Positions 7,181-56,608 of a stretch of DNA of 64,000 nucleotides are shown here, piece after piece (position 1 is the stretch's first letter; the number at the start of each line of letters is the position of its first letter). The DNA comes from a virus. The position numbers and the translations under genes were made by a program. The stretch lies in the IMG/VR virus record IMGVR_UViG_3300049844_000277, positions 36,520-100,519 of that record; one strand, written 5' to 3'. A model generated the notes under the pieces. The model did no database searches and was not told the origin of the DNA. It worked only from the letters and a program-made list of their open reading frames with translations.

Positions 7181-7184
7181 AAAT

Positions 7185-7240
7185 CATTGTACTACGTAAA
7201 GCGAAACGGCCGCCGGTCCATTAGGACCCAGCGGCCGTCG
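7185..7240 (-). terminator. Putative intrinsic terminator between the 419-aa and 927-aa genes (minus strand)
   Basis: GC-rich imperfect hairpin cggccgccggtccattaggacccagcggccg (with an inner GGTCC-ATTA-GGACC hairpin), followed on the minus strand by the T-rich tttcgcttt...gatttttg. Confidence 0.3.
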
Positions 7241-7268
7241 TGGGCCCACTAACTGGGAGCGAAGGAAC

Positions 7269-8528: not shown

Positions 8529-8633
8529 GAAAGTTTGCTCCTTTTACTTTTACTTTGGCCGGAGTGTAGGCCAATGGTTGAGATTTAACAATCAATGTAG
8601 TCGGTCGGCGCCGCTACGTACAACTTAGGAGAA

Positions 8634-11750: not shown

Positions 11751-12380
11751 TTAAGTACCGGCTCCACGGGAACCTCCTTCACAGAACATCATTCGCCGTA
11801 GGTCATCAGCATGCTGCTGGTCAGTAAGGACCATTTGCTCCAGCATGACCTTAAGCGACAAATTATCTCCGGCCATGTCTGACAGATGTCGTAACTCTTC
11901 AATCAATTGCTTCTCAGTTTGTAGAAGAGTCATGAAAATCTGGTGGAGGTCACTCATGTTCGGGATGACACCTACCTTAGGAATAGGTTCTCCGCCTAAC
12001 GCCGTAATCTTCATTGCGAGATGGTAGGCGTCCATCCGCTCTTCTTTGATGTGCTCTTTAAAGTGGTCGTAGATAACATCTCTAAAGTGCGCACGAATAC
12101 GATCGCCATAATTCATATACATGAAGATGATGGTATATTTGTAGCGCAGCAACTTATTACACTGAGCCACTACCTTATCCTGGGCAACCGCGAAGAATCC
12201 TTCCTCGGCCGATACAGCAAGAGGATGAGCACCAGCAGATGCTGTGGCAAGCGGAGGCATGGCGAACATCTCCTCCGTGTGCGGGGATGACTCCATTGTG
12301 TCCGCCATTGGACTGCTAGGAACTGGAAGACTCGAGCCACTCTCAGCCATGGAAGTACCCACTTTGTAGCGCTGCGTCAT
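11751..12380 (-). CDS. Hypothetical helical protein (209 aa) immediately after the rpoB-rpoC fusion; weak ferritin-like E/H spacing
   Basis: Start ATG overlaps the fusion-gene stop (ATGA). Paired E...H residues (KEHIKEERMDAYH, EQMVLTDQQH), but no clean ExxH pairs. Confidence 0.35.
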   Translation of the reverse strand: MTQRYKVGTSMAESGSSLPVPSSPMADTMESSPHTEEMFAMPPLATASAGAHPLAVSAEEGFFAVAQDKVVAQCNKLLRYKYTIIFMYMNYGDRIRAHFRDVIYDHFKEHIKEERMDAYHLAMKITALGGEPIPKVGVIPNMSDLHQIFMTLLQTEKQLIEELRHLSDMAGDNLSLKVMLEQMVLTDQQHADDLRRMMFCEGGSRGAGT

Positions 12381-25300: not shown

Positions 25301-25374
25301 TCATGTGCAGGGTTTGGGTGTGAAGCCGCCCGGTCAAAAACGGACATTGTATCAGTGTTAGGAAGGTCAGCCAT
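22363..25374 (-). CDS. Putative portal / head-tail connector-like protein containing an intein (1003 aa precursor, about 576 aa spliced)
   Basis: Extein has the Q-rich C-terminal tail typical of portals (QQVQLQAQ...QQAKAQMAQQNQPV), and the gene sits first in the structural operon. N-extein has a CPSC...HCLHC zinc ribbon. The portal assignment is tentative. Confidence 0.45.
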   Translation of the reverse strand: MADLPNTDTMSVFDRAASHPNPAHDFLTGFVPRKLKDLFKWCEYLMYNSAHVYAALRKFGELVVTDLEYGTSNEALRRNYRRLFEKTLKIKSALLMASLDKHIYGNHFTSIYKPFVRSLKCPSCQQLVAIQHTDYKFELKSLAFTYHCLHCKRDVRGTVVDRKILAASRVHIIRWDPKLMDIDYNPITGQSVYYYNIPQDVKDQVKSGSKHLINSMPMEFLENIRDNKTFRFEKDALFHIKVPSPSGIDQQWGFPPLASTIKLFLYTMTLRKANECVSLDTLIETSTGLVPADDVRVGDLVRTHLGRWRPVEQKWYRDAKDDEIGCRITLSGLRHLSGVFSPHHPILTLRRTSDARRSDTKDKQTSSEILQNPHLYEEVMCPAEQFEKGDYILYPRTIPSEPQQVDVAKYTGFANTENYVYSAMSLPSAQAFEAESAGEHVKGVPGKIARRKLKEGSVPKRLPATRPMTEDFAYILGHYVGNGSCNQRTVMIAMGSKTEEPLREAIRREFGLECGGYNQRGNCSMVTLCDVIVKALIKGMVPGTARVKRVPSEVFHAPDSVKLAFLKGLWEADGHTREGQDTLATSSAGLAYDVYRMLLHVGCIATIREHITPIHALADGRVITPNGPSYHVRVSGASQERLYALWNWEDAEEITIGKSGFFWKDYFAARVSVVEESEEEQYIDFKIAEDSTFCIAGGATKNSIALEHVVPMRILHPAQNGQQDFTQMISLARWQDEMKQNIRRWRRDPLHIMMAPVALGVSNLGGDGRAMLTLGELQEAEKSIMAALGIPQEFLYGGLTKAGMEATLRLIQNQTQGHADDMNDLLQWYSDQMSRYLGWEKIEAKLTPLKMVDDTESKQLLLSMATGQAGPSYVSMTTILERLDIDLDAEREKRLQETLDEARHNQRVQNELRKLQNNLSQQVQLQAQGTPGLNYDQQAVIAQADQIVQQLMGLDVGSRRSQLDSLSKEDAVMHAVVIQRLEDLQNQQGQQAKAQMAQQNQPV
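23269..24549 (-). mobile_element. Intein (427 aa, LAGLIDADG type) in portal-like protein
   Basis: Starts CVSLDTLIETSTG (classic block A). Motifs ILGHYVGNGS and FLKGLWEADGHT. Ends YIDFKIAEDSTFCIAGGATKN followed by Ser. Boundaries verified on the DNA. Confidence 0.75.
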
Positions 25375-34143: not shown

Positions 34144-37100
34144 GTGCCCACAACCCGAGGAGCTCTCATGGAGAAGCCCGCAGAAATCTGCAGCGGATGT
34201 CCTCGAGAAATCGAGACAGAGACCCATCCCTACGGTTATGTTGAATCGTGGATTGATTCAAACGCCGAACTCATCATCATAGCGGAAGCTCCTGTCTGCG
34301 ATCGCCACGGTAACGTTCCTAGCTCTTTCGACGATGACAGCGGTAAAATCATTCGAACCGCCGTATCCGAGCTACGTAACTTACCTTCGCACAGTAAGCT
34401 AGCGGTCTCGTATACGTACGCAGTACTCTGTACAAGCAACCAGGGCGACAAAGACCCCGAAAAAGCCGTACTGCAACGGTGCCGTACGCTGCTCCAAGCT
34501 GACTTACGTCGCGCAAACAAGAACGCCGTCCTGCTGGTAATGGGTATGTCTGCCCTTCGCGCACTAGAAATAAAAGCCGCGAAGTTGAAGGACATGCAGG
34601 GGCGATTACTCCAAAAGCAGAAAATTGGAGAAGGTGATGACGCTCCGATATTCGATGTCGTCGTAACCGTCTCGACAAAACAGTTGTTCGCGATGCCGGG
34701 AATCTACACGACGTTCGTAGCGGACCTGCGACGAGCTGCGGACGCTGCGAGCGCAGGTGGATTAACACACGTTACCCCACTCGAAAAACTAACCGAAAAA
34801 TACGTAATCCCGAAAACAATCGAAGAAGTACGCCAAATCTGTCGCGAAATACTGAATTATCAAGAAGGTAAAGTATCTGCAGATAACTGGCCTATCTCTG
34901 TAGACACCGAGACAAACACCAAGTTTCCACACCGAGAAAACTTGAAAGTATTGGCGGTGTCCTTCGCATGGGCGGAGGGTAAAGCTACTGCAATTCCATT
35001 AGAGCACCCCACTACACCCTACGCGTACCAAGACGCGATACCGTACGTACGCGAAGTCTTAGCGAGCAAGAAGCCGAAGTTCCTTCATAATGCTAAGTTC
35101 GACCTTAAAGTCTTCATGAAAGCGGGCTGGCCGATTAACGGGTTCGCTTGGGATAGCATGCTAGGGGAACATGCTCTCGAAGAAGATAAAAAGGGACAGT
35201 ACGGATTAAAGCAGTTGACCCGTACTTTCTTCCCGGAATTCGCGACATACGCCGACTCTCTTCAAGAAATGCTCACGCACGAAGAGGGCGACTCGCAGCT
35301 CGACAACCTGAGGAAAGCGCCAAAAGCTTCAACTTCGAAAGATGGGGGATTTGAAAGTATCCCACTTCCCACGCTATTGCTTTATGCGGCAGTCGATGCA
35401 GATATGACACGGCGGCTAGTGTTACTGCAGGAAAAAAGAATTACCGACGAGCAGAACAGAGTAATCGTAGAAACGAATATAACGAAGAGAGAGCAGGCGC
35501 TGGCGATTTCGGCGAGGAAGAAAATACGGCTGAGAATTGCGCCGCTACATAGTGAGACGGAGATGTTGAAGAAGTACATGGTGCTCTACCCCGTCCCAGA
35601 ACTCTGTTCCGCTGATAAGCCGGTAAGACAACTAGTACTGAACAACGTATTCCCCGTTACCCCAGCTCTCGCGAGAATGGAGTTTAAGGGCATACGGATA
35701 GACAGACCGTACCTAACTACGTTGCGTGAAGCGTTGGGAAAAGTCGTCACAGAAACCGCTGCAGAGCTACAGGATATGGCGGGCAGAGAGATAACTCTCA
35801 ATAGTCCGGCAGAGATAGCTGAAATCCTGTTCAACAGCGGGTTTATACATCCAACAACTCACGCCCCCACGACTTATCCCCTCACAGGCATCGGTAAGAC
35901 AAAAACGGGACAGATACAAACCACCGAGAAAGTGATGCAGTACTTGGTGGCGAAGTATCAGTGCCCCTTTGCAGCTAAAAAACTAATCTACGCCAAGGCA
36001 TATAAAGCGAAAAATACGTTCTGTCAGAATGTGTGGGATCTCTCGGAGCTCGACGGGTATCTACACACGAACTACAACCAGCACGGCACAAATTCGGGTA
36101 GACTGTCCTGTGTCGCGGGAGAAACCGTACTAGATACTAATTACGGAAAAATCGAGATACAGAATCTCGATCTGGAGAAGATGCCGGGGATTACCATCCA
36201 GACCCACGAACTCCGCGAACAACCGATTCTACGTAAAATAGAAAAAGGCATTGAAGAAATGTTCGAGGTCGAACTCGAAGACGGGCGCACCATCACCGTG
36301 ACTAAAAAACATCGCTTCTTGACGCCGACGGGGTGGAAACGACTCGAGGAACTGTCAGAAAATGCCGAAATACTCTGCGCCGCCTCCGTGGGTAGTGGAC
36401 CAAATATGCGACTCGTTACAACCCGGATAAAAAGCATACGTCCCGTAGGTCCTAAGAAAGTCTGGGACCTCACAGTAGCGGTCGATCACTCTTACATCGC
36501 CCACGGATTTGTTAACAAAAATTCCAACGATGAAAACATGCAAAACATCCCCAAGAAATTGGCGGGTGTTAACATTAAGAAAGTGTTCCTCCCGGACGAT
36601 GATTCGTATGTCTTCGTCAACGCTGATGCGAAGGGTGCCGAAGTACGAATCCTAACCGCCTACTGCCGAGACCAAGCGCTCATACAATCGCTCAACGCGG
36701 GGCAGGACACGCATTGTTTCATCGCGTCCAAGATTGTTGAAATCGTACGTCAGAGTCCTGGTGCAACGGCGGTTCTCGGAAGCATGAATCTAAGCGATGA
36801 GTATCCTCTGACGTACGAAGACTTCGCGGCTAGAGACAAGCTAAAAGAAACCAATAGTAAGTACGGGGCGATGCTCGACAAATTCAGAACCGCTGTCAAA
36901 CGCGTAGTGTTCGGTATTCTGTACGGCGCCGGTCCTCAGAAAATTGCGGAAACTATTGGTATCAGTCTAGAGCAAGCACAACAGCTCATTCACACTCTGT
37001 TCGCTTTGTTTCCGTCCATCAAGACGTACATGGCGCAGACAAAGTGGGAACTACAACAATTTAATTTAGTCGAAACGTTCTTCGGTAGACGCCGTAGATT

Positions 37101-37527
37101 TAGTGTATCGGGAGCGCCGAAGTATCAAATAGGGAGAGCTGAACGTCAGACAGTTAATTTTAAAATCCAAAGCACAAGCTCTGATATCGTAATGGGACGA
37201 TTACTAGCAATCGAAGAACCTCTCAAAGATTTGGGAGGTAGACTTCTATTGACAGTGCACGACAGCCTTGGGTTTCAAATCAAGAAAAAATATATCCGAC
37301 AGCTACCTGATTTCATTTATACGTATTTGGAGAAGGGTGCAGCAGACGCCCATCCATGGCTCCCAGTCGCATTTAAATGGGACTACGAAGTTGGGTCATC
37401 ATACGGCGAACTCAAATCACTGGAATCCTACCTTGCCAACACGAAAATAGAGGAATACTCGAACGATGCCTACGTCGCCGAGGCTTTCACAGAAGAAGAC
37501 GCAAGAACCTCCCTCTCCGAACCCTGA
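34144..37527 (+). CDS. polA: Family A DNA polymerase (Pol I-like) with N-terminal UDG-like domain and 3'-5' exonuclease domain, carrying a mini-intein
   Basis: UDG family-4-like ELIIIAEAPVCDRHG...FDDDSGKIIRTAV. Exo I SVDTETNT; Exo II FLHNAKFDLKVF; Exo III LLLYAAVDAD. Motif A NADAKGAEVRIL; motif B KRVVFGILYGAG; motif C LTVHDSLGF. GRLS/SNDENMQNIP split by the intein. Confidence 0.9.
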   Translation: MPTTRGALMEKPAEICSGCPREIETETHPYGYVESWIDSNAELIIIAEAPVCDRHGNVPSSFDDDSGKIIRTAVSELRNLPSHSKLAVSYTYAVLCTSNQGDKDPEKAVLQRCRTLLQADLRRANKNAVLLVMGMSALRALEIKAAKLKDMQGRLLQKQKIGEGDDAPIFDVVVTVSTKQLFAMPGIYTTFVADLRRAADAASAGGLTHVTPLEKLTEKYVIPKTIEEVRQICREILNYQEGKVSADNWPISVDTETNTKFPHRENLKVLAVSFAWAEGKATAIPLEHPTTPYAYQDAIPYVREVLASKKPKFLHNAKFDLKVFMKAGWPINGFAWDSMLGEHALEEDKKGQYGLKQLTRTFFPEFATYADSLQEMLTHEEGDSQLDNLRKAPKASTSKDGGFESIPLPTLLLYAAVDADMTRRLVLLQEKRITDEQNRVIVETNITKREQALAISARKKIRLRIAPLHSETEMLKKYMVLYPVPELCSADKPVRQLVLNNVFPVTPALARMEFKGIRIDRPYLTTLREALGKVVTETAAELQDMAGREITLNSPAEIAEILFNSGFIHPTTHAPTTYPLTGIGKTKTGQIQTTEKVMQYLVAKYQCPFAAKKLIYAKAYKAKNTFCQNVWDLSELDGYLHTNYNQHGTNSGRLSCVAGETVLDTNYGKIEIQNLDLEKMPGITIQTHELREQPILRKIEKGIEEMFEVELEDGRTITVTKKHRFLTPTGWKRLEELSENAEILCAASVGSGPNMRLVTTRIKSIRPVGPKKVWDLTVAVDHSYIAHGFVNKNSNDENMQNIPKKLAGVNIKKVFLPDDDSYVFVNADAKGAEVRILTAYCRDQALIQSLNAGQDTHCFIASKIVEIVRQSPGATAVLGSMNLSDEYPLTYEDFAARDKLKETNSKYGAMLDKFRTAVKRVVFGILYGAGPQKIAETIGISLEQAQQLIHTLFALFPSIKTYMAQTKWELQQFNLVETFFGRRRRFSVSGAPKYQIGRAERQTVNFKIQSTSSDIVMGRLLAIEEPLKDLGGRLLLTVHDSLGFQIKKKYIRQLPDFIYTYLEKGAADAHPWLPVAFKWDYEVGSSYGELKSLESYLANTKIEEYSNDAYVAEAFTEEDARTSLSEP
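36109..36522 (+). mobile_element. Mini-intein (138 aa, no endonuclease domain) in the PolA GRLSS-NPNLQNIP motif
   Basis: CVAGETVLDTNYGKIEI...KKVWDLTVAVDHSYIAHGFVNKN followed by Ser. Excision restores TNSGRLS-SNDENMQNIP, matching the family-A consensus. Boundaries verified on the DNA. Confidence 0.8.
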
Positions 37528-38297: not shown

Positions 38298-38793
38298 CCT
38301 GTAGATACGTAAAATCTTTGTTCCAGTACATCTGGAGTCAGCGTAGCGCTGACATGCTTCCCAGAGCTCTTAGTTTGGTAGCCTAGCTAACAAATATAAG
38401 GTCAATGGCCGCCGGGGAAAAATGAACTCCCTGAACCCCACCGAGCTCGAGCAAACAATAAATATATAGTAGAACATAGAAAGATCTTTCCTGCCCGGTA
38501 CCATTTCGGAGTCAGCGTAGTGCTGACATATGGCCCGATGTTAGCGCGAAGCCTAGCTTCAAGCTAAGAGAAGGTCATTATGGGCCGCCTCCGCCTCAAG
38601 GGCAATATCCTTAAGTATGTGGCGCCTATATTGGACATTCCGCGGAATCATAGAACTAAGAGGAAAGACGTAGGGAGCGTAGGGATTCGAGCTGTAAACA
38701 CAGCGCCCGCGTAGTGCGGGCAGCCGTAAGCTGTTCAGATAAGCTATGAGATAAGCTTGAAATCAACCATATCCTCACTGAATGAGGAATCCC
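38298..38793. repeat. About 500-bp noncoding region with two copies of a roughly 90-bp hairpin-containing repeat and further hairpins
   Basis: GGAGTCAGCGTAGCGCTGACAT at about 38333 and GGAGTCAGCGTAGTGCTGACAT at about 38509 (7-bp stem, TAG loop). Each is followed by related ...agcctagct...aaggtcaatggccgcc segments. Also GCCCGCGTAGTGCGGGC (about 38703) and TCCTCACTGAATGAGGA (about 38773) hairpins. Lies between convergent genes. Confidence 0.6.
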
Positions 38794-40398
38794 TTACGCG
38801 TAGAATTTCAGGTCATTAGACACAAGCTTATGTGCAAACCATCCGAACAGTTGTGCATGAAGACAATCGTCAGGTAATTGGGGACTGTGTCGCCAAACCT
38901 TTTTACCTGACGACGTAACTTCTTCATAGACGTTCAGAATATCTTTAATCGCTTCACGTGATTCTTCTCGTGGCGGATATACAACCGAACCCCGCTTCAG
39001 AAACATGAGATAGTTATCAATCATCGTCGTGCGGTCAGCGAGATACCTGTCCAAGCCATTGTGCTTTATCGGCTGACCTAACGCTCCGTACTGCATCATG
39101 TGCACGCGGTGAGCGCCTAGACGGTCTCGTAGCGTCGCATTAGGTAGTGCGCCTTCGCCAGCGTCACCGATGACCATCGCAACAGCGTAATGCTGGCAAA
39201 TCGCAGCGATATTCTCGACATCTGCGACGGCGTTGCTTCCTGGGTAAATTCGGAAGTAGAGCGTACGTAACTTCTGTGTTGCGGGATGAAAGCCCCACAC
39301 CCATAGGACCGTACGGCTAACGCCCGTCGTTCCGCCGCCCGACCAATCAACGCCGGCAACAGTAATCGAACAGCCTTCCAAATTTTTACCTGGCGTAGGG
39401 GATATCTGGGGGCCTGTGCACAGTGCTTCGAGCTCCTCCAGTGAAATAAGTCTACGACCTACGGCATCTGATACACCCAAGACCTCATTGCGGAACTTAG
39501 CCGCGGAAAACATGTCATGGTCACGGAGGATATCATCCCAACGCGCCTGAGCGTCCTCGACTGCACTCGGCTTTTCGGGCGTATTTTTTACACACGACGG
39601 GATGTTCAGCGGCATAATCAATTGAGAAATGTGAAAGCCTTTAATGGAGTGTTTTCCAGTACCCTTGTCGGCAATACGCATATCGATCCACTGCCCTGCG
39701 CGGGGATTTAAAACCTTCCCACAATTAAGACAAATGGGGCCGTGTTTACCGAGAGACTTCTCACTAATAACGAAGTTGTATTTACTACACCCCTCGCACT
39801 TCATCACCCATTCGCTCTGAGAAGACTGATCCCACAAAAATTGAATGGAGTTCTCCATAGTTTTCGGAGTTCCGGCGTAAGTTTCGAACCGGTACGCGGA
39901 ATTCTTCATACACGCCAAAATTACGGGAATGACACTGTCGTATAATACGTCCTGTACTTCGTCAAACAAACAACGGTCAGCGGAAAAACCACGCGCACGA
40001 TCCGCGTCATCGGTCGCGTACGTGAACCCGTTCTCTGACCCGTTCGTATACGACCGATGTAATACGCGATCCGCGTGATCTGGAGATAAGAAGTATTTCT
40101 TAATCAACGGCGAATACGACAATGTTTTACCAACACGCGTGTTAGAGAACAAGAGAGTTTGCTCGCGTGAAGGACTGGAATAGTAACTCTTGAAAAATGG
40201 GCGAGAAACAGATTCAGATATAATAAAGTTAGCCAGAGATGTGCTTTTACTGACCTGACGCGCAGTCATCAGAAGCGTCGATTTATAACCTCCGTCATAT
40301 ATCGATTTGAAAAATGGATAGTCTGTAAGACTAAAGGGAGCGCCGTCTAGCCATAATAGACGCTCAGCCACTTCCGAAAGACGTTTACTTCCAATCAC
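38794..40398 (-). CDS. terL: Terminase large subunit (ATPase plus RNaseH-like nuclease) with zinc-ribbon insert
   Basis: Walker A LLMTARQVSKST; Walker B CLFDEVQDV; YAGTPK coupling motif; CEGCSKYNF...CLNCGK ribbon; nuclease-domain GVDWSGGG...MVIGDAGEG. Confidence 0.85.
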   Translation of the reverse strand: MIGSKRLSEVAERLLWLDGAPFSLTDYPFFKSIYDGGYKSTLLMTARQVSKSTSLANFIISESVSRPFFKSYYSSPSREQTLLFSNTRVGKTLSYSPLIKKYFLSPDHADRVLHRSYTNGSENGFTYATDDADRARGFSADRCLFDEVQDVLYDSVIPVILACMKNSAYRFETYAGTPKTMENSIQFLWDQSSQSEWVMKCEGCSKYNFVISEKSLGKHGPICLNCGKVLNPRAGQWIDMRIADKGTGKHSIKGFHISQLIMPLNIPSCVKNTPEKPSAVEDAQARWDDILRDHDMFSAAKFRNEVLGVSDAVGRRLISLEELEALCTGPQISPTPGKNLEGCSITVAGVDWSGGGTTGVSRTVLWVWGFHPATQKLRTLYFRIYPGSNAVADVENIAAICQHYAVAMVIGDAGEGALPNATLRDRLGAHRVHMMQYGALGQPIKHNGLDRYLADRTTMIDNYLMFLKRGSVVYPPREESREAIKDILNVYEEVTSSGKKVWRHSPQLPDDCLHAQLFGWFAHKLVSNDLKFYA

Positions 40399-41212: not shown

Positions 41213-42496
41213 ATGAGCAATACCGCGCAAAACAGCGTAGCCACCACAGAAAGTTATTGGGATAAGTACGGGATTCCTAGAGTAACACTTCACGAAGCCC
41301 TTGCACAAATTGAACTCTCCATTATCTACAATCAAACAAGAGGAGTTTTTTGTTTAATCTCAGAAGCTGGAGAAGGAAAATCGCAAGGAATTCACCAACT
41401 AGCTCGAAAACACCGAAGGCGTGTGGTGGACATCCGAACATCGCAATTTTCTATGATTGGCGCAGGTGTTCCCCAGAGAGCAGACGAAACAGGGCACTTC
41501 AAAATCGCCATCCCAAATGATTACCCGAAACCGGGAGAAAAGTGCCTACTAGTATTCGATGAAATCAACCAAGGGCAACAACACGCCGTAGCGCTATTTT
41601 TCAAACTATTGGAAGATCGAGGAATCTACGACTACACACTCCCCAACGATTGCATCATCGTTGCTTTGATGAACCCCTCGACCGCGAACTACTCAGTCAC
41701 TAAAATTGAAACTAATTCAGCTTTTAACAGACGACTACAAAAACTCTACGTATACAACACTTTCTCCGATTGGAAGAAGCACGCACAAACAAACGACTTC
41801 CACTACACAGATGGGCTTCAGAAGCCCTGCCATCCGATGGTTGTACGGTTGCTCACAGCTACTCCCGCCATGCTGTATACCGCCAAGGATAGAGACGGGA
41901 ATAAGCAGTATGCCTGTCCCGCAACCTGGCAGACCGTATCTCTGTCGCTCTACAACCTCGCCGATGCGGGCGTGGACCTCACAAGTGAGCGAGCGGAGAA
42001 TCGAATCGCCGCGTCTATCAATATCGTCAACGCGCGGATGCTCGTGGAGTTCATCAAGAACAACGAGATACTCATCGGCCCGGAAGAAGTTCTGTTCAAG
42101 TACAAGCCGAAGAGCAAGCTTCGAGAGCGAGTGCTCGAAATACAAAAGGAGCCCGGCGGTACGTACACGCAGCTCGTAGAAGATGTCGCGCAATACATCT
42201 TCCGCGAGAGACCGGAAGCCGAAGTCATCGCGCCCAACCTCGTTCAGTTCTGGCACGATATGCCGGTCGAACAAGCGCAGCCGTTCTACCAAATGCTAGA
42301 TGCTGCCTGTCAGGCACACGGCGGTATCAAGGAGCCCAAGAACGTTCAGTACATGCAGGCGCTCACCACCGCGAATCGTCAGTATCCGCTGTGGAAAGAA
42401 ATCAACGACAGAATCAACCGCATTCACGACGAGGTCGAGAAGAAGATTCATGGGCGAGGGGTCGGGAAAGACCCCATGCTCAGTGCTCAAATGTAG
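41213..42496 (+). CDS. MoxR-like AAA+ ATPase
   Basis: Walker A SEAGEGKSQ; Walker B plus MoxR signature LLVFDEINQGQQHAVALFFKLLEDRG; downstream sensor-like region. Confidence 0.7.
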   Translation: MSNTAQNSVATTESYWDKYGIPRVTLHEALAQIELSIIYNQTRGVFCLISEAGEGKSQGIHQLARKHRRRVVDIRTSQFSMIGAGVPQRADETGHFKIAIPNDYPKPGEKCLLVFDEINQGQQHAVALFFKLLEDRGIYDYTLPNDCIIVALMNPSTANYSVTKIETNSAFNRRLQKLYVYNTFSDWKKHAQTNDFHYTDGLQKPCHPMVVRLLTATPAMLYTAKDRDGNKQYACPATWQTVSLSLYNLADAGVDLTSERAENRIAASINIVNARMLVEFIKNNEILIGPEEVLFKYKPKSKLRERVLEIQKEPGGTYTQLVEDVAQYIFRERPEAEVIAPNLVQFWHDMPVEQAQPFYQMLDAACQAHGGIKEPKNVQYMQALTTANRQYPLWKEINDRINRIHDEVEKKIHGRGVGKDPMLSAQM

Positions 42497-44251: not shown

Positions 44252-45946
44252 ATGTTGGGAAGTGAGCCAGCATACTTCTTAAAGGATATCCAAAAAATGT
44301 CAAACCAGCCTGAACAAGAAAATGCACTCCAGAAATCGATGGTTTTCTGGGTGTCCCGCCGAGGAGCCTCTAACTACTGGGCCTCGGTCGTGAATGGAAT
44401 GAATAAGAGGTTCTCTAACGACGAAGGAACAATGTCGGTGCAGCTCACAGAGAACTGGAAATATATCCTCACCTGCCATCTTCCAGCGTTCGAATCGTGG
44501 TCGCCGAGAATGCGACTACTTGCTCTCGTTCACGAATGCGCTCACGTAGTTCTTCAGCACATTCCCCGGCTGTTCAAGATGTTGGCCAATTGTACAGACC
44601 CGTTCGTACGCACAGCCATCACATCGACGTTCAACTTCGCAGCAGACTTCGCGGCGAATGACGCAATCGTTCGACTTGAAGACGGATTCACAGAAGCGCA
44701 CAAAGCCTTCATGCACGTCAGTCCAGACGGAAAGCCGATTCCTCTCTCCAAAGAAGAAGAGGAGAAACTTCCCGGTGAATGGCCATTTCTTTTGCCAGAA
44801 GAATTTGGACTACCTCGTGGAAAGACAATGGAAGAGTACTTCGTGCTCATCCTCAAGGACCTCCCGAAGTTCAAACAACACGTCGAGGAGATGATGAAAA
44901 ACCTCGAACGTATTCTGAGTGAAATGGGGGAAGACTCCGAAGGAGAAGGAGAGGGAGAATCAGAGGATGGAAGTGGCGGCCAGGGAAAATCTCCCTCCCG
45001 TCGAAACATTCCACCTAAAGGGATTCCCGGCATTCCCGACGAAATCGTCAAGCACGCTCTCAACTCACCAGAGACCTTCGAGATGTTGCAGAAGGCCTTT
45101 GATAAGATTTCCAGTAAAGCACACAAGCAGTGGAACGAAAAAGCAAAGGAGATGACACCTGAGGAAGCAATCTCTGCGGGCAATAAGCTCAAGAAGCACG
45201 CGCAGACGATGGTCAGGGCCGCGAATGACCGCGTAAAGAGAGACCGCGGATTCATGCCCGGCGGAGTCCAGAAGATAATTGACGCGCTGATGGAGCCGGA
45301 CCAGATTCCCTGGGATTCAATTCTTCGAGACATCATTCACGGAGCAATAAGCGCTCGCGTTCAAGAGGAGATGGTCTCTCCGAATCTGTCTCTCATCAAC
45401 GAAGACTACTTGGAGCCGTGGCCTGGGCAAACATTGGAATTTGGCTTCAACATCACCTGGATGACCGATACCTCTGGTTCGATGGGTGATAGTGAATACG
45501 CGCGGGCGTGTAACTGCATGAACTCGCTGCTTGCGCAGAACAAGTTCGTATCCGTCACATACTGCGAGTGTGACGCCATCATGCAAAAGGAGGTGAAAGT
45601 CACAAACATCGAACCGCTCACAGAGGAATACTTGAGCGAGCTCCGTACACGCCGAGGATATGGAGGAACTGTCTATACGCCGTTCTTCAAGCGCGTAATG
45701 GGTGCGGATGAACCTCGGGATTGGATTGATGGCGCACCACGACTAGAGGATGCGCATCCCAAACCGGACTTAATGGTAATCTGCACGGATGGTGGCGTTC
45801 GTCTCATGGGAGAATGCTTCCCGAAGTATCGGCCAGAATGTCCCATCATCTGGTTGTTGATGCCAGGCTGCCATGCTACGACCGGAATGGATGATGTCGC
45901 GCCGGACCGGTTGATTCAGATGTATAAAATGCGGGAGGAGGAGTAG
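44252..45946 (+). CDS. MoxR-associated protein: putative HExxH metallopeptidase domain plus von Willebrand factor A (MIDAS) domain
   Basis: LALVHECAHVVLQH (HExxH); FNITWMTDTSGSMGDSE (DxSxS MIDAS motif); acidic linker EDSEGEGEGESEDGSGG. Confidence 0.65.
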   Translation: MLGSEPAYFLKDIQKMSNQPEQENALQKSMVFWVSRRGASNYWASVVNGMNKRFSNDEGTMSVQLTENWKYILTCHLPAFESWSPRMRLLALVHECAHVVLQHIPRLFKMLANCTDPFVRTAITSTFNFAADFAANDAIVRLEDGFTEAHKAFMHVSPDGKPIPLSKEEEEKLPGEWPFLLPEEFGLPRGKTMEEYFVLILKDLPKFKQHVEEMMKNLERILSEMGEDSEGEGEGESEDGSGGQGKSPSRRNIPPKGIPGIPDEIVKHALNSPETFEMLQKAFDKISSKAHKQWNEKAKEMTPEEAISAGNKLKKHAQTMVRAANDRVKRDRGFMPGGVQKIIDALMEPDQIPWDSILRDIIHGAISARVQEEMVSPNLSLINEDYLEPWPGQTLEFGFNITWMTDTSGSMGDSEYARACNCMNSLLAQNKFVSVTYCECDAIMQKEVKVTNIEPLTEEYLSELRTRRGYGGTVYTPFFKRVMGADEPRDWIDGAPRLEDAHPKPDLMVICTDGGVRLMGECFPKYRPECPIIWLLMPGCHATTGMDDVAPDRLIQMYKMREEE

Positions 45947-45958
45947 AATAGGCGCACT

Positions 45959-46264
45959 ATGCCAACCGTCACTCCTCCAATAACTGATGACTCGGATTGC
46001 AGGGGCTACAAAGTACGATTCAACGAATCTTGGGAAGGGTCTATCTACAAAGCGAACCGTCATTGCTGGATGGCTACGCTAACCAAGAAACAGAAGAATC
46101 GCGCGCTTGTCATTCGTCCCGGAAAAAATTTTCCAAATCCTACGGAAGCGAAGAAATGGTGTGAAGAACAATTTGAACTAGAAGAAAAATCAGCGGTCCC
46201 ATACGAACAAAAACTTCGAGACGTACTCGTCGCAATCCGTAAACAAATAGAAGAAACCCTATAA
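45959..46264 (+). CDS. Hypothetical protein (101 aa)
   Basis: Intact ORF, same strand, short spacing. Confidence 0.4.
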   Translation: MPTVTPPITDDSDCRGYKVRFNESWEGSIYKANRHCWMATLTKKQKNRALVIRPGKNFPNPTEAKKWCEEQFELEEKSAVPYEQKLRDVLVAIRKQIEETL

Positions 46265-46265
46265 C

Positions 46266-46652
46266 ATGTCGCTATACAACTCGCTTTTCGGCCAAGAAAC
46301 TCTGGCCCCAGTTCTCCTAAACGCGCTGAACCTGTCTCGAGAAACCGTCGGAAGATATCGAGACTGTTATCTGGCGAAGGGGGAAGACTTAGGAATGCGC
46401 ATCATCGTATTCACGCGAAACGGTGGCGGTAATCGTGAAGACTACGAAGAAGTAACTCGCTATCTTCAAGCACATCCCCTGTACGTTCGCGACTGGGATG
46501 AAGAGTACGATTGTACTTACGCGTCGTACGAGTTTCGCGTACCAGAGTCGCTAGCCAAGGCCTTGGAAAAATTTGATGAGGAAGAACTCATGCCGCAGTA
46601 CGCACCGATGGAAAAATTCAAAGCGGTAATTGAGAAGCTCAACAGTCAGTAA
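46266..46652 (+). CDS. Hypothetical protein (128 aa)
   Basis: Intact ORF followed by a CT-rich tract and a strong terminator. Confidence 0.45.
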   Translation: MSLYNSLFGQETLAPVLLNALNLSRETVGRYRDCYLAKGEDLGMRIIVFTRNGGGNREDYEEVTRYLQAHPLYVRDWDEEYDCTYASYEFRVPESLAKALEKFDEEELMPQYAPMEKFKAVIEKLNSQ

Positions 46653-46684
46653 CAGTCCTCCTCCCCCTCCCCTTCCCCCTCTAG

Positions 46685-46721
46685 GGCTTCTACGTACGCG
46701 TAGGAGCCCTTTCTTTTTCTT
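46685..46721 (+). terminator. Rho-independent terminator
   Basis: GGGCTTCTACG-TA-CGTAGGAGCCC (11-bp stem with one G-U pair), immediately followed by TTTCTTTTTCTT. Confidence 0.7.
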
Positions 46722-46728
46722 AGGTACC

Positions 46729-47331
46729 ATGGACCTCTACTGTCTTCGTGTTCGTAGGAACATCGCTGGACGTAAATTTCCCTTCGATAGAGTGTATCTC
46801 GCGAAATACGGGGATCACGTTATATTCAAAAGATTATTCAGGTATGCCTTCATCCTTCCCGTTGAAGGCGTACTAAAGGAAACGCTGTACTGTCTCCCCA
46901 TTGAAGACAGCATGACGCACGCATTCGACAGAGTAGAAACGCCTGAGAAAATTCCAGATGTAGAGTGGAAGACGCTCATCGACTCGACGGACTGGGTACT
47001 CGCGGTACCGATTCTATCGAAGTACGTGACCGCTAACATGCCGAGATATATTATTGCCAAGTCCACGGTGCCCCGAAGAGACAAGAAAAACTCTAACGCG
47101 TGCGCAAACCCGTTTCCAAACATGACGTACTTGCAGACACCCGAGCAAAACATTCGGCCAATATGTGTCGCATGTCCGAACTTTATCCAGCATCAGAACG
47201 GTCACTGCGAACTTGGAGATAAGCTCTGCTACGACTCTCTTTCCCTGGGAATCCGAAATCACTTTGAAGAAGGCATGATGGTTCCTCCTGCCCCGGAAAA
47301 AGAACAAGTGACTGAGGAGGGGAACGACTAA
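46729..47331 (+). CDS. Cys-rich hypothetical protein (about 200 aa), first gene of the RT operon
   Basis: ATG at 46729 after the terminator (the track ORF begins earlier, at 46630, inside the CT tract). CVACPNF...HCELGDKLC. Stop overlaps the RT start (TAATG). Confidence 0.5.
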   Translation: MDLYCLRVRRNIAGRKFPFDRVYLAKYGDHVIFKRLFRYAFILPVEGVLKETLYCLPIEDSMTHAFDRVETPEKIPDVEWKTLIDSTDWVLAVPILSKYVTANMPRYIIAKSTVPRRDKKNSNACANPFPNMTYLQTPEQNIRPICVACPNFIQHQNGHCELGDKLCYDSLSLGIRNHFEEGMMVPPAPEKEQVTEEGND

Positions 47332-48467
47332 TGCCTGTCTACAAACAAAATTTCCTTGAGCGAATTGAAGTACGCGAGCCACTCATCAAAGGCGTACCCC
47401 TTATCGTCGATGACTGGAGTCTGGCATTCCAGCTAGGTTTTACGGGTAAGACCGCGTGGTACATCATCCATGAACGCGCCAGTATGTACCGGGAGTTCAT
47501 GCTGAAAAAGAAGTCTGGGGGTCTCCGTAGAACGTTTGATCCAACTAACCTCCTGCGCATTTTCCAGAAACAACTACGCGCACGCATTCTGTTCCCGCTC
47601 GTATCTCGCCTAGGTCCGCACGTAGCCGCGTATCAGGTCGGTAAGAGCACGCTTGATGCGGCAAACTGGCACCTGCGCGAGTGTAAAATCTGCGACGACA
47701 CGACCCGTCCCGGCACGAGTCCTGTGAAACATGAGTGTCCTCGACGGGGTGTGAAGTTCAAAATGGATTTGAAGGATTTCTTTCTATCGACTCGTCGGTC
47801 CTGGATACGACAGTATTTCCACGAAGTCGTCGGATACAATCACTACGTCTCGTCGATTCTGGGGCACCTACTGACGACGAGTTATAAAGATGAGCGGAGA
47901 AAAGACAGGAACGGCGTTCCGCCAGGCGCATTAACAGCTGGCGATATTTGTAATCTCATCTGTGATTGGAAGATAGATCAACCGCTTATGGCGGCACTAC
48001 CCACAGGCTGGAAGTACACACGGTACGCCGATGACTTGTATTTCTCGTACGACGCACCCCTTCCATCAAAAGAAGTAAACAAGATAATCCGACTAGCCTC
48101 GGACACCATCACCGGCTCCGGTTACCGGGTAAATTGGAAAAAGCTCCAAGTGCAACACTGGAGCCGGCCCCAGCGAGTACTAGGTATCAATATCAACAGA
48201 AAACTAAACATCCCTGCGACTGAGTACCGTCGAATGCACATGATTCTGTATAAAGCAAAGAAGCATGGATTCCAGGCGCAACTTACGTGGGCAAAGAAAG
48301 CCGATGTTCCGGAACTTCACGCCTGGATAACCGGCAAACTGAATTACTACGCGCGATTCGCACCAGATAAAACCAATAAACTACAACGGCTTTATCAAGA
48401 AGCGAAGGACGCGAATCCAAGCGAAGAGGCCGCGGTGTTCAACTTTGGAACCGGTGCAAACCCATGA
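47331..48467 (+). CDS. Reverse transcriptase (RT domain motifs 1-7 plus thumb GxxNYY), 378 aa, no endonuclease or maturase extension
   Basis: Motif 1 KKKSGGLRRTFDP; motif 2 AAYQVGKSTLDAA; motif A KFKMDLKDFFLS; motif B' GVPPGALTAGDICNLICDW; motif C TRYADDLYFS; motif 6 YRVNWKK; motif 7 RVLGININ; thumb WITGKLNYYARF. Insert CKICDD...HEC between motifs 2 and A. Confidence 0.8.
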   Translation: MPVYKQNFLERIEVREPLIKGVPLIVDDWSLAFQLGFTGKTAWYIIHERASMYREFMLKKKSGGLRRTFDPTNLLRIFQKQLRARILFPLVSRLGPHVAAYQVGKSTLDAANWHLRECKICDDTTRPGTSPVKHECPRRGVKFKMDLKDFFLSTRRSWIRQYFHEVVGYNHYVSSILGHLLTTSYKDERRKDRNGVPPGALTAGDICNLICDWKIDQPLMAALPTGWKYTRYADDLYFSYDAPLPSKEVNKIIRLASDTITGSGYRVNWKKLQVQHWSRPQRVLGININRKLNIPATEYRRMHMILYKAKKHGFQAQLTWAKKADVPELHAWITGKLNYYARFAPDKTNKLQRLYQEAKDANPSEEAAVFNFGTGANP

Positions 48468-49840
48468 ACATGTACACGGTTTGCCACGCGTACGATGCAC
48501 GTAACGCAAGGTCAGATGCACTTGCGCTTTTGTTCAATACTCCCGACACTAAAAAAATAGCAGGAATCCCTGAGCTCTCCGAAATATATCCCAACGGATA
48601 TTTCGTCACTAGTATCTCCGACATAAAATCAGGAGACCCCTACAGACACTCATACTACCAAAGACAAAGATACTCCCACAATCCTGCTCCTTACACGATG
48701 GTATCCATTTTCGCTACGTACCCCCGTCCAGATGAGGCAAAACTAAACAGCGAAGATATTTGCTTCTTCGTAAATGGAAAAACATATCAGGTTAATCTAC
48801 GTACCCGCTACAACCACTGCCTGTCGTTGTTCAAAGCGGTAGGTTGTGCGCAATGCCCTGATAACGGGCTCCCCTGCGTATCCCAGGAAGCCGAAGAGCT
48901 AATCGAGCTTGATAAGAAACTCACCGACGCCGAAAGGCCTGTGTATTTCAACGAGACAGCGTTCTCGAACAATACCGAGTTCTTGAACGATATCGACGAC
49001 ATAGAGTTCTTAAAGTACCTACAAAGAAAGCACCCGTCCCTCGGTGACTTCAAACTTGTCAAACCCGGATCAACAAGTCCACGTTCGTTCCATAGTACTT
49101 TCCGCCCGTACTGGGACCACGACTTTTCGCTAGTTCCACGTAATGAAAAAGAAAAGTCAGACGCGGCATCTCGAGCAGCACGGACACGTAAGTTCAAGAA
49201 GGAAGAATGTCCTCAGTGCGTCATCAAAGATAGCTGCTCGAATGCATCCCGGTGTGATGGTAGATATCCGCCACAGGAGACGATTATCAAGCAGGCGAAT
49301 GCGGAGCTTACTGCGGCGATAGCCGGGTCGATACTTCCCGAGTGGGCGATATGGGAAGTTGCTCGAGGCGCGGGACAAACAGCAAAACATTCCAGGTGGC
49401 ACATCATGCTCACCGGAATACTATTAGACCGATATGGAAATGGGTCTCTCCGCGCTACAGTTCACCGCGCAAAAACAGACATCGATGAGTACAAAAGACT
49501 CAATACGTACGAAGAAATCGCTGAAGTATTTAACTTAGCGAAAACGGAAAAAGATGTGCCGCCCGAGCGTGGACCACTGAGGAGCTTTGAGCTCCGCGCA
49601 GTTTGGTGGTTGGCGCTTCTTGCTCGCTCAACCGCTCGAAGGGCTACAGGTTGGGGAGGTTCCCGGTACGTCGTAAGTATCGGTGTAGATGAGAAGACCG
49701 GTATCTCGCTCGAATGGACAAACGGGCGAGATATATCCCACTGGCACAGCAACAATCTACGTAAGATTGAAGATGTATCGAGGTGCCTCACGCCGAATAG
49801 TTTGTACGGCGTAGCTAAGGAACAATTCGTTCAGCGGTAG
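48464..49840 (+). CDS. RT-associated hypothetical protein (458 aa)
   Basis: Start overlaps the RT stop (ATGA). Contains a CPQCVIKDSCSNASRCDG cluster; no recognisable catalytic motifs. Confidence 0.55.
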   Translation: MNMYTVCHAYDARNARSDALALLFNTPDTKKIAGIPELSEIYPNGYFVTSISDIKSGDPYRHSYYQRQRYSHNPAPYTMVSIFATYPRPDEAKLNSEDICFFVNGKTYQVNLRTRYNHCLSLFKAVGCAQCPDNGLPCVSQEAEELIELDKKLTDAERPVYFNETAFSNNTEFLNDIDDIEFLKYLQRKHPSLGDFKLVKPGSTSPRSFHSTFRPYWDHDFSLVPRNEKEKSDAASRAARTRKFKKEECPQCVIKDSCSNASRCDGRYPPQETIIKQANAELTAAIAGSILPEWAIWEVARGAGQTAKHSRWHIMLTGILLDRYGNGSLRATVHRAKTDIDEYKRLNTYEEIAEVFNLAKTEKDVPPERGPLRSFELRAVWWLALLARSTARRATGWGGSRYVVSIGVDEKTGISLEWTNGRDISHWHSNNLRKIEDVSRCLTPNSLYGVAKEQFVQR

Positions 49841-50918
49841 GACACACTTCCTGGTACGCAAGGAAGGCTTCTGTATCTGCGAGGAGGGCGGCCGACTGAG
49901 CTTCGTCGGCTGCTCTCTTCGCTGTCGCCGCTTCGGCGGCAGCCGTATCTGCGTCTTTCTTTTTTTGGCTCGTAATGGACACTTCACCGAGCTTATTAGT
50001 ACAGGTGAGCGCCATATCGCTTCTAAACGCTTCGAGGACTGACTGTCCGTTCGTAACTTCATCCACGACCGCTGCATCCATGGCAGTCTTAGCGGCGTCC
50101 CAGATGGCTTTCGCGCTGGTGTAGGCGCTCTTTGCGGCGTCGTAGGTAGCATTATCTGCGGTACCTGCTCGATAGGCGTCGGCCACACTAACGAACGTAG
50201 TAACTGCGTTGGTGTAGGTAACCGACGCTGAAATAAAGTTGTTGACGCTTGCCCGGTACGTGCTAATAGCCGTGTTCCCGGAGTTGAAGCGCCCCAGCAT
50301 CGCGCTACACTTCTGGCTCTCACTTAACGCCGTGACGTTGTCTTCGTTCGCCGCTGAAGCTGCGGCTGCGGTTACGGTAGCGTCCGTCGTTGCTTCGGCT
50401 GCCGTCACTTTGCTAGCCAGGTACTCGGCGTGCGCCGTAGTGTACTCGGACTCCCGTTCCGCAACGATGCCCGCGGTGAGGGGCATTGAAATCGTCGAGT
50501 AGTCTGGCGGCGAGGTAAGAGGCGCCAAAAACTGCTCGTTGTAGGTATGCCAATCGGCAATCAGATTGTCGACACGTTGTTGAATGAGAAGCTTGGCGCT
50601 CGAGGCCGTAGCAATGTCATCATAAACAACCGTGAAGTTCGTGCTGAGATAAAGGGTCTGATTTAAGCCGACCGCCGTTTCTCGGCCTAAGGACAGCGTC
50701 GTCAAATCAGCTACGTTAGCGACGCGAAGAAAAGTATCTGACTTTGGATCAACTGAGTTAACTATCTGATGGACAAAAATATTTGACGTGTACGGAGAAG
50801 GCCCGTATAGGGGGAGATCTCCTGCCTCGACCGAGTCGATGCTCGAATCAATCTTGAAGCGTTGAATACTAGCTTCGTCGAGAAATACAGTGCAACGTTG
50901 TCCAAGAGTGGTAGGCAT
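49815..50918 (-). CDS. Ala/Thr-rich structural-like protein (367 aa), possible tail fibre or adhesin component
   Basis: Composition and repeats (AAKSAYTSAKAIWDAAKTAMDAA) typical of fibrous virion proteins; convergent with the RT operon. Confidence 0.4.
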   Translation of the reverse strand: MPTTLGQRCTVFLDEASIQRFKIDSSIDSVEAGDLPLYGPSPYTSNIFVHQIVNSVDPKSDTFLRVANVADLTTLSLGRETAVGLNQTLYLSTNFTVVYDDIATASSAKLLIQQRVDNLIADWHTYNEQFLAPLTSPPDYSTISMPLTAGIVAERESEYTTAHAEYLASKVTAAEATTDATVTAAAASAANEDNVTALSESQKCSAMLGRFNSGNTAISTYRASVNNFISASVTYTNAVTTFVSVADAYRAGTADNATYDAAKSAYTSAKAIWDAAKTAMDAAVVDEVTNGQSVLEAFRSDMALTCTNKLGEVSITSQKKKDADTAAAEAATAKRAADEAQSAALLADTEAFLAYQEVCPTAERIVP

Positions 50919-55728: not shown

Positions 55729-56436
55729 ACTTATTAAAAAACAATAGGTGTAAGCAAGTTTCGGGCCAACAAACTTTTTCAAAAATTCCTGAAAGGGGCG
55801 TTCAGCCGCAAATGTCCGTAATTACTAAAACTCGAAGAAAAACCTGAACAGGCTGAATGCCCTGACATGGTGCTTCTTATATAAGCATGGAGTAACAGGG
55901 GTATTACTGACCCACCCTGGGTCATTTTTGACGGACACTGGGTATAAAGTTCAGAAACATATTCAGGGTATTCAGGTATTCAGTTATCCAATAAAATCAA
56001 GTACTTAGAACGAAAAATGGCTGAATACCCCCTGAATATCCCCCCCTATGGCACCAGAATTGCTTGTGCGGTCAAAATCGAACTTTCTGGGCTATTTTCT
56101 GGGCTATTATTTTGTTCAGTATTCCTTTTAACCAAATGCCCGAACTGGCGAACATTGATCACGTGCCATCCCGCGCGCCCAACATTGATCCCGTGCTGTC
56201 CGAGCCGACCCTCAGCGGGGTCAAGCTCCCGTGCTGTCCGCGCCAGCCTCCGGCCGGCCCCGCTTCCGCAAGGGAAACCTTCCCGACGTCCCGACGAAGA
56301 CTATACCCTAGCCTAGCCTTATCCTCCACCCCCGTCCCCACTCTCGCTGTAGCCGTAGATTTCCTGGCAAGTCTCGCCAAAGGCCTCCAGCGGGCCGTAG
56401 GACCGACGAACCGGCGTAACCCGGTCCGACCCCTTG

Positions 56437-56482
56437 CCCGACCCCCGAACGTCGCTCCTGCGCCCGCCTAGGCCCCTTCCCG
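56437..56482. repeat. Direct repeat copy 1 (46 bp, GC-rich)
   Basis: cccgacccccgaacgtcgctcctgcgcccgcctaggccccttcccg. Confidence 0.8.
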
Positions 56483-56562
56483 CCGGTCCGCCGAATCCGC
56501 CTCAAACCGCCCTGAGTGGCCTCCAGGCGCTCAAACGCCCCAGACCCGACCCAAGACCCTAC

Positions 56563-56608
56563 CCGACCCCCGAACGTCGCTCCTGCGCCCGCCTAGGCCC
56601 CTTCCCGG
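56563..56608. repeat. Direct repeat copy 2 (46 bp, identical)
   Basis: The same 46-mer, 126 bp downstream of copy 1. Confidence 0.8.

Follow-up and report, generated by a model that had tools for sequence, protein, structure and literature searches.

Diversity-generating retroelements (DGRs) and group II introns are the usual reasons for a phage to carry a reverse transcriptase (RT). What role does an RT have when it stands alone in a large phage genome? We addressed this question for a 64,000-nt stretch of virus DNA (the window; positions 36,520 to 100,519 of IMG/VR record IMGVR_UViG_3300049844_000277), which is part of a 167,875-bp phage contig and encodes an RT between two co-directional genes, here called up and dn. 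Judged from its sequence, this RT clearly belongs to the retron clade. It keeps a conserved active site, it is linked to up and dn at a fixed genomic position, and its divergence keeps pace with that of the terminase. The locus has no template repeat/variable repeat (TR/VR) pair, no intron RNA and no type XIII retron noncoding RNA (ncRNA). Our favored explanation, which we hold at roughly even odds, is that the up-RT-dn triad is a retron-derived reverse-transcription complex in the standard gene set of large (~130-196 kb) uncultured double-stranded DNA phages. Retrons are known as bacterial antiphage systems, though here a retron-clade RT is a stable, inherited phage gene. The triad and the main elements of the RT are as follows.

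46729-47331, plus strand: up, a Cys-rich protein of 200 aa.
47331-48467, plus strand: RT, a retron-clade reverse transcriptase of 378 aa.
47682-47738, plus strand: zinc-knuckle insert CxxC...HxC of the RT (C118, C121, H134, C136), between motif 2 and motif A.
47922-47942, plus strand: PGALTAG (RT residues 198-204), the motif B equivalent of QGxxxSP.
48024-48035, plus strand: conserved catalytic YADD (RT residues 232-235).
48464-49840, plus strand: dn, 458 aa.

The genes overlap at both junctions. The up/RT junction reads TAATG (TAA 47329-47331, ATG 47331-47333) and the RT/dn junction ATGA (ATG 48464-48466, TGA 48465-48467). These start/stop overlaps recur in independent gene calls, and the gene positions and junctions given in a preliminary description of the window, made from the sequence alone, were confirmed. 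An open reading frame list places the start of up at TTG 46630 instead of ATG 46729; the ATG is supported by the conserved N-terminus MDLYCLRV and by an independent gene call of the same length.

The domain content of the RT agreed with that description in most respects. Pfam RVT_1 covers residues 59-288 (profile positions 2-205 of 205, E 2.4e-14), which is the whole profile. Retron RT profiles extend through residues ~350-365 and take in GKLNYYARF, which had been proposed as a group II/retron-like thumb. RVT_1 is the only Pfam domain of the protein, and no maturase, endonuclease or Avd domain was found on the RT or its neighbors with Pfam, PADLOC, PHROG and NCBIfam, as had been noted for this 378-aa enzyme. 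The motif A Asp and YADD are retained in at least 90% of 32 sequences (34-78% identity). The Cys/His insert was likewise borne out, with C118, C121, H134 and C136 invariant among the 32 homologues; bacterial type XIII RTs do not have the insert, nor does one of the phage subclades (L038, L041). Motif B required some correction. It was said to match neither QGxxxSP of retrons and group II introns nor IGxxxSQ of DGRs. This is true of the window, which reads PPGALTAG, but the Q-to-P change is confined to the window's subclade. The family consensus is PQGAxTSG, and therefore the Q is normally retained and only S-P has become S-G.

Profile comparisons placed the RT clearly with retron enzymes. The best PADLOC match was RT_XIII (E 1.6e-46, residues 21-363), whereas most other models begin near residue 143. 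The best 25 of 48 PADLOC matches were all retron RT models, which gives no support to membership of the UG/Abi clades of defense-associated RTs. A 32-member profile searched against the PDB matched the retron RTs Ec67 (1.4e-28) and Ec86 (1.3e-25), with group II RTs at ~1e-6. Among NCBIfam models, retron models rank best yet score far below their curated cutoffs, and the group II model TIGR04416 gave 37 bits against a cutoff of 300. The classification called for in the preliminary description thus returned the retron clade, with RT_XIII on top, and not group II. Across 185,579 species genomes scanned, the nearest bacterial relatives are at most 32% identical and come from Myxococcota, Planctomycetota and Verrucomicrobiota. 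Those examined carry type XIII ncRNA, and many also carry SWIM and HEAT/ARM partner genes; they are confirmed as genuine Mx162-like type XIII retrons.

Type XIII retrons (RT clade 10: Retron-Mxa1/Mx162, Mxa2/Mx65, Sau1/Sa163, Nex2/Ne144; Mestre et al. 2020) are the best full-length match, and in both systems the RT is accompanied by a pair of accessory proteins, of which one is Cys-rich. The differences emerged when the phage RTs were aligned with ten bacterial type XIII RTs. The VTG of motif 7, at the start of region Y, is lost: the phage clade has Q(R/K)xLG, with (V/L)LG in place of VTG and RVLG in the window, against RQxVTG in the bacteria. The NAxxH of region X has lost its N, reading xAxxH or AVxxH against TNAxxH. 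An N-terminal extension of ~170 aa occurs only in the bacterial enzymes, and the phage match begins at position 109 of the 469-position RT_XIII profile. The CCHC insert is a further difference, as are the unrelated partners, the lack of a type XIII msr-msd and the residence in phage genomes rather than cellular chromosomes. VTG and NAxxH are retron-specific signatures linked to msr binding and initiation (PMC6868368, PMC8632793), and regions X and Y are required for synthesis of multicopy single-stranded DNA (msDNA) as well as for msr binding in Ec86 and Ec73 (PMC6868368). Beyond its clade, the window RT therefore lacks what marks a retron: VTG, NAxxH, an adjacent ncRNA and type XIII accessory proteins. 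The closest solved RTs, Ec67/Eco2 and Ec86/Eco1, align from motif A to motif 7, PQG and YADD included, with their QEVTG position corresponding to QRlLG in the phage profile. Their systems have an adjacent ncRNA and fused or adjacent Toprim or NDT effectors (PMC7736814), none of which is present here. Retron-like RTs of Staphylococcus jumbo phages and Klebsiella P2-like phages are also phage-borne and similar to the retron type, but they share less than 30% identity over partial length.

The triad occupies a conserved block of phage genes. Iterative profile searches recovered all three genes of the triad in 42 of 46 viral loci. Of the remaining four, L043 has an RT without up or dn, and the other three are truncated at the end of their contig. 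Contigs with the triad are 130-196 kb long. The gene order is near-invariant: the large terminase gene terL (minus strand), a MoxR AAA+ gene (plus), two genes (minus), a DUF2201 VWA-metallopeptidase gene (plus) and up-RT-dn (plus), followed by three structural-looking genes, namely two paralogous Ala-rich genes and a DUF2793 gene (minus), one gene (plus) and then ribonucleotide reductase. In the window, the two named upstream partners are these.

41213-42496, plus strand: MoxR-type AAA+ ATPase homologue, conserved syntenic partner of the VWA protein.
44252-45946, plus strand: DUF2201 metallopeptidase-like and VWA protein, conserved co-directional upstream neighbor.

Pfam AAA_5 identifies the MoxR gene in relatives; the window copy itself has no Pfam match. 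In relatives, up starts a median of 2 nt after the VWA gene, and the ancestral unit was therefore one of four co-directional genes. Two small genes (45959-46264 and 46266-46652) and a hairpin are inserted at this point in the window. Iyer et al. (2021, PMC7824862) predicted that a MoxR/VWA pair of this kind helps jumbo phages to assemble their virions. These two genes also border the triad and are conserved along with it; the jumbo-phage pair was described without any RT. That MoxR/VWA and the triad are functionally connected is no more than a suggestion, based on their common block and on the metal sites that up, RT and dn each have.

Divergence within the block followed the phage lineage. 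On the same contigs, identity to the window was 83, 83, 68, 55, 54 and 51% for TerL and 74, 71, 49, 39, 36 and 34% for the RT. RT identity falls in step with that of TerL, which is a pattern of vertical inheritance; type XIII retrons are also largely vertically inherited (PMC7736814). In L003, the RT (74%) is the best conserved of the three proteins, with its partners at 56% and 40%. The 80 best bacterial and archaeal genome matches held no family member except on two phage-like contigs binned into metagenome-assembled genomes (MAGs). These are QMZE01000001.1 (L045, "Archaeoglobales" MAG, 78,677 bp) and CAYTFY010000008.1 (L046, "Gemmatimonadaceae" MAG, 169,868 bp), both phage-like over the whole contig and carrying the triad, and their host labels should not be trusted. 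Among known phages there was no DNA match, protein matches stayed below 30%, and INPHARED/GenBank phages had no member of the RT family. These results make the triad look like a vertically inherited phage gene set and not defense cargo. Our literature search found no description of an up-RT-dn module, and for metagenomic viruses only passing counts of "retron" RTs (PMC10504277). The novelty lies in a retron-clade RT with new partners, in a new host (a phage) and without a classical template.

The partner proteins point to metal-binding adaptors. In up, a basic linker connects an alpha/beta domain at the N-terminus with a four-Cys motif at the C-terminus, CxxC-x10-C-x6-C, whose residues C146, C149, C160 and C167 are invariant, with the consensus YLQTPxxNIRPxCxACP. 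In dn, eight Cys in two clusters (C119/C128/C131/C138 and C249-x2-C252-x5-C258-x5-C264) are the only residues conserved across 47 diverse sequences, and no candidate catalytic residue stands out among them. When these 47 members were scanned with Pfam, the sole result was a weak match of a Cys motif to DDE_Tnp_1_6. Neither protein matched a family in Pfam, PADLOC, PHROG or NCBIfam. AlphaFold2 models were obtained for both, with predicted local distance difference test (pLDDT) scores of 77 (dn) and 68 (up); structure prediction of the 458-aa partner, suggested earlier as a check, thus yielded a model, but neither dn nor up matched a known fold. Family and domain searches revealed no recognizable effector domain (nuclease, TIR, protease, ATPase or transmembrane segment) in either. 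Because only the Cys are conserved in dn and no library matches either protein, we read up and dn as probable metal-binding adaptors, not enzymes. The type XIII accessory proteins are a DEDE/winged-helix/SWIM protein and a HEAT/ARM-repeat protein (Mestre et al., PMC7736814), and among the neighbors of the bacterial relatives are a HEAT/ARM-like protein and one that has a SWIM finger at its end. Descent of up and dn from these was considered and rejected, as hhalign gave a probability below 1% against both bacterial partner clusters. The dn family comprises 229 cluster representatives among 1.84 billion proteins, and even its most distant members lie within the triad.

A retron-type RT would be expected to have a template beside it, and the preliminary description reported no msr/msd-like structure by eye. 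This observation held. No msr/msd was found near the triad, a repeat search of 44-51.5 kb returned no convincing inverted repeats flanking it, Rfam and covariance model searches were negative, and the gene block has no conserved intergenic space. A sliding fold scan of 27 loci gave one recurrent signal only, directly after the dn stop codon. As a reference we used the type XIII ncRNA, a conserved element of ~180 nt located 5' of the bacterial RTs, in which an msr hairpin is accompanied by an msd hairpin that is long and perfectly paired. Its parts are the msr hairpin GCGGCGUUCCGCCGCGG, GUUGUUCGUUUGG, the long msd hairpin and GGUGAACGACC. Covariance model R1, built from 30 bacterial loci, recovered seven of seven held-out bacterial loci (E 3.6e-13 to 2.3e-42). 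A motif scan of the phage for type XIII ncRNA was negative.

The bacterial element showed several features of its own. Its conservation among Myxococcota, Planctomycetota and Verrucomicrobiota is striking, as 29 positions do not vary in any of 30 sequences, and examples among loci L047-L124 are L058 5997-6175 and L090 6122-6302. L106 carries two tandem copies (5649-5829 and 5952-6132) with different msd stems. No Rfam family reached its gathering score in ten scanned type XIII loci.

A structured region was present farther away, in the convergent gap beside terL (38298-38793, 496 nt, fold z = -4.24). It holds a tandem array of structured RNA-like units.

38313-38418: structured RNA-like unit, clear.
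38485-38591: structured RNA-like unit, clear.
38682-38791: structured RNA-like unit, weak.

The layout of each unit combines a closing helix with a CCGG hairpin, which is short, and a second hairpin of 7 bp whose loop is UAG or UAA; after these come a long, variable hairpin with the cap AGC-CUA-GCU / AGCCUAGCU and a tail of ~80 nt that is also variable. Compensatory changes support 10 of 21 predicted pairs. Close relatives have three to five units. Arrays lie at L128 5936-6434, L129 5931-6423, L131 6266-6968 and L132 ~5850-7200, and the units of L132 are more diverged; L136 seems to hold a diverged form. Units were found only in loci whose terL-downstream region could be read. They have no Rfam or tRNA match. 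In L141, a distant phage whose TerL is 31% identical, 20 tRNA genes (6478-8626) occupy the same terL-downstream spot. Elsewhere, a perfect hairpin AGGCGUG-UAA-CACGCCU, with a stem and loop type as in the terL-proximal units, lies in the short divergent region 5' of VWA-up-RT-dn in L001 (3649-3665) and L016 (4598-4614). The hairpin with a 6-7-nt stem and UAR loop was considered as a general promoter motif and rejected, for it clusters only at 38.3-38.8 kb and the hairpins upstream of the VWA gene are inconsistent among loci.

The layout of the units (closing helix, a pair of small hairpins, a single long hairpin that varies) matches the general plan of retron ncRNAs (PMC6868368). This likeness makes the units at 38313-38791 the leading candidate for a template. 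The array could be an RT template, a set of small RNA genes or a group of REP-like (repetitive extragenic palindromic) elements. We treat its connection with the RT as only a lead because the units are non-homologous to type XIII RNA, multi-copy, 8.5 kb away and seemingly diverged in L136, and because L141 has tRNA genes at that spot.

Taken together, the conserved active site, the gene linkage, the fixed position, the vertical inheritance and the partners with metal sites only lead us to favor a retron-derived complex making complementary DNA (cDNA) within the phage program. The three proteins would form a complex in which the RT, with its polymerase active site retained, would be the sole enzyme. 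Up and dn would be nonenzymatic Cys4 metal-binding proteins, made by coupled translation, whose most likely task would be to hold nucleic acid for the RT or bring it there. An RNA encoded away from the triad would be copied into small cDNA, and we infer that the phage itself would benefit. The RT would descend from the stock of type XIII retron RTs (Mx162 group). Since then it would have lost the N-terminal extension, VTG and NAxxH, gained the zinc knuckle and had both accessory proteins swapped. Priming and template recognition would probably differ from classical msDNA synthesis. If the enzyme does make cDNA for the phage, the same molecular toolkit would be seen serving the opposite party in the arms race. 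The finding would also offer a new RT-cofactor architecture with possible use in DNA-writing tools, and a system for studying primer and template specificity after the loss of VTG and NAxxH.

Several observations weigh against this explanation. No template RNA was found, and the gene block has no conserved noncoding room for one. Neither the window nor 39 phage loci gave a credible match to R1, which returned only two fragments of at most 9.6 bits (E≥0.59). With filters off, it scored at most 3.3 bits on the terL-proximal gap, so that the units there are not homologous to type XIII RNA; the array is linked to the RT, as a lead, by shared genomes and architecture. The loss of VTG and NAxxH could mean that RNA priming as in retrons has been given up. 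The partner models are of medium confidence, and a known fold may have escaped detection. Finally, two close homologues, P0035 and P0037, lack YADD, and P0037 stands alone in another context, so noncatalytic uses of the RT protein exist. Both are 56-57% identical to the window RT and have lost the motif A Asp as well as YADD (HEGS and HNDS). P0037 (L144 6001-7104) has neither up nor dn, adjoins SMODS, DUF4357, serine recombinase and PD-(D/E)xK genes, and may be an exapted or decoy copy.

A bolder form of the favored explanation, which we regard as doubtful, is that this phage lineage runs reverse transcription in normal infection, with up-RT-dn copying the terL-proximal RNAs into msDNA-like molecules used by the phage. 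The array-derived small DNAs might, for example, neutralize retron-type or nuclease defenses of the host, or prime or mark phage DNA. If so, a retron would have been turned from a bacterial defense into a phage tool whose template locus is dispersed and multi-copy and whose two cofactors, both metal-binding, are new. The search also yielded two by-products: a covariance model that works for the type XIII retron ncRNA, and structured phage elements of a new family.

The same degree of doubt attaches to phage-carried defense or superinfection exclusion, a possibility raised in the preliminary description as a defense-type RT system carried by the phage. Here a retron-type abortive infection system, with up or dn as effector, would shield the infected cell from competitors. 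All characterized retrons with accessory proteins act in antiphage defense (PMC8632793, PMC7736814), and retron-class RTs of metagenomic viruses have been interpreted in this way (PMC10504277). The retron clade of the RT fits, and the dead-RT homologue in L144 sits beside SMODS and recombinase genes in a seemingly variable, defense-type region. Defense cargo would, however, be expected to show a patchy distribution and an effector domain, neither of which was seen. The triad holds a fixed syntenic position across the phage lineage and diverges at the pace of terL (RT identity 34-74%), unlike patchy accessory defense genes. Neither partner has an effector domain or matches a PADLOC model, and no ncRNA adjoins the RT. 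We therefore consider a defense role unlikely.

Mimicry of host retrons appears improbable. As an antiretron mimic, the phage RT would use the msr-msd of a host type XIII retron and supply msDNA or a decoy that keeps the host effector silent. This would explain a phage without its own template and the missing ncRNA beside the RT, and it is consistent with nearest relatives among the type XIII RTs of Myxococcota, Planctomycetota and Verrucomicrobiota and with an RT that lacks the N-terminal extension of the host enzymes. But the motifs for msr binding and initiation (VTG in region Y, NAxxH in region X; PMC6868368) are lost, identity to the host RTs reaches 32% at most, and two dedicated, co-inherited partner families would be superfluous for simple mimicry.

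We give little credence to the RT fold as a mere scaffold or nucleic-acid-binding subunit, acting for instance in virion assembly with MoxR/VWA, in which polymerization is not under selection. The triad and the VWA-metallopeptidase gene form one co-directional block, with MoxR and terL close by, the MoxR/VWA pair is predicted to serve jumbo-phage virion assembly (PMC7824862), and YADD-less homologues exist. Against this, the motif A Asp and YADD persist in at least 90% of the family across deep divergence, the RT is better conserved than its partners (74% vs 56% and 40% in L003), and the YADD-less P0037 lies outside the triad.

An ordinary DGR or group II intron reading frame deserves hardly any weight, for although the Q-to-P change in motif B of the window is unusual, this reading is already refuted within the window by the absence, across the 64 kb, of TR/VR, an Avd-like gene, intron domains and maturase or endonuclease, and by RT scores far better against retron than group II RTs. 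The searches behind this were a self-BLAST of the whole window and the 44-51.5 kb repeat search, neither of which found a TR/VR pair, in agreement with the earlier failure to see one by eye. The sole long direct repeat (56419-56482 and 56544-56607; 64 nt, 89% identical, 125 nt apart) has mismatches without A bias; it stands after a 335-nt structured gap (55729-56063, fold z = -3.3). Phage DGRs of the Bordetella BPP-1 type likewise pair a phage-encoded RT with small accessory proteins, but their TR/VR, Avd and I/LGxxxSQ (motif B IGxxxSQ) are all missing here, and the RT falls outside the DGR clade. For group II introns, Rfam reported no intron family: one tRNA was the only match at the gathering threshold in the window, and matches at E≤5 over 37-57 kb were at chance level. 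With neither intron RNA domains nor a TR/VR pair, as sought by the two checks the preliminary description had named, both ordinary elements are excluded.

The triad is flanked by two structured signals.

46683-46720, plus strand: terminator-like hairpin and T-run; 12-bp stem with 7 G-C pairs and a 4-nt loop.
49848-49966, plus strand: three hairpins (49848-49867, 49880-49921 and 49922-49945) and a T-run (49953-49966).

The upstream hairpin stem itself (46683-46710) ends 18 nt ahead of the up start. Its presence agrees with the preliminary view of a three-gene operon behind a strong terminator, but the feature is lineage-specific: most relatives have neither terminator nor gap ahead of up, which lies directly 3' of the DUF2201 VWA-metallopeptidase gene and runs on from it. 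A polypyrimidine tract of 30 nt, C/T only (46653-46682, CAGTCCTCCTCCCCCTCCCCTTCCCCCTCT), is immediately 5' of the hairpin. The hairpins after dn have a fold z-score of -4.26, and this position is the strongest local structure in most of the 27 loci scanned. By our own reading, at least 17 of the 27 have a hairpin, with differing stems, and then a T-run after dn. We read the structure as an intrinsic-terminator-like operon end on two grounds: a T-run follows it, and its position is within the Ala/Lys-rich sequence that codes for the C-terminus in the convergent gene 49815-50918 (minus strand). Selection on RNA is not fully separable from codon palindromy in this signal, to which Ala-codon palindromy may add. 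The convergent Ala-rich gene overlaps dn by 26 nt, and the T-run corresponds to Lys-Lys codons on the opposite strand. Many relatives share this arrangement of a terminator within a convergent gene.

The rest of the window is that of a phage, with a GpA-type large terminase (38794-40398), an SNF2 helicase, a primase-polymerase and a VapE-type helicase. One gene, 34144-37527, encodes a family A DNA polymerase that contains an intein (Intein_splicing, residues 678-793), and a 1003-aa protein with Hint and LAGLIDADG domains (22363-25374) probably holds a second one. On the minus strand, 9086-10885 encodes a fragment-like homologue of the multisubunit RNA polymerase beta-prime subunit (Rpb1 domain 5) and 12377-20887 a giant open reading frame of 2836 aa, which together suggest a large phage with its own transcription machinery.

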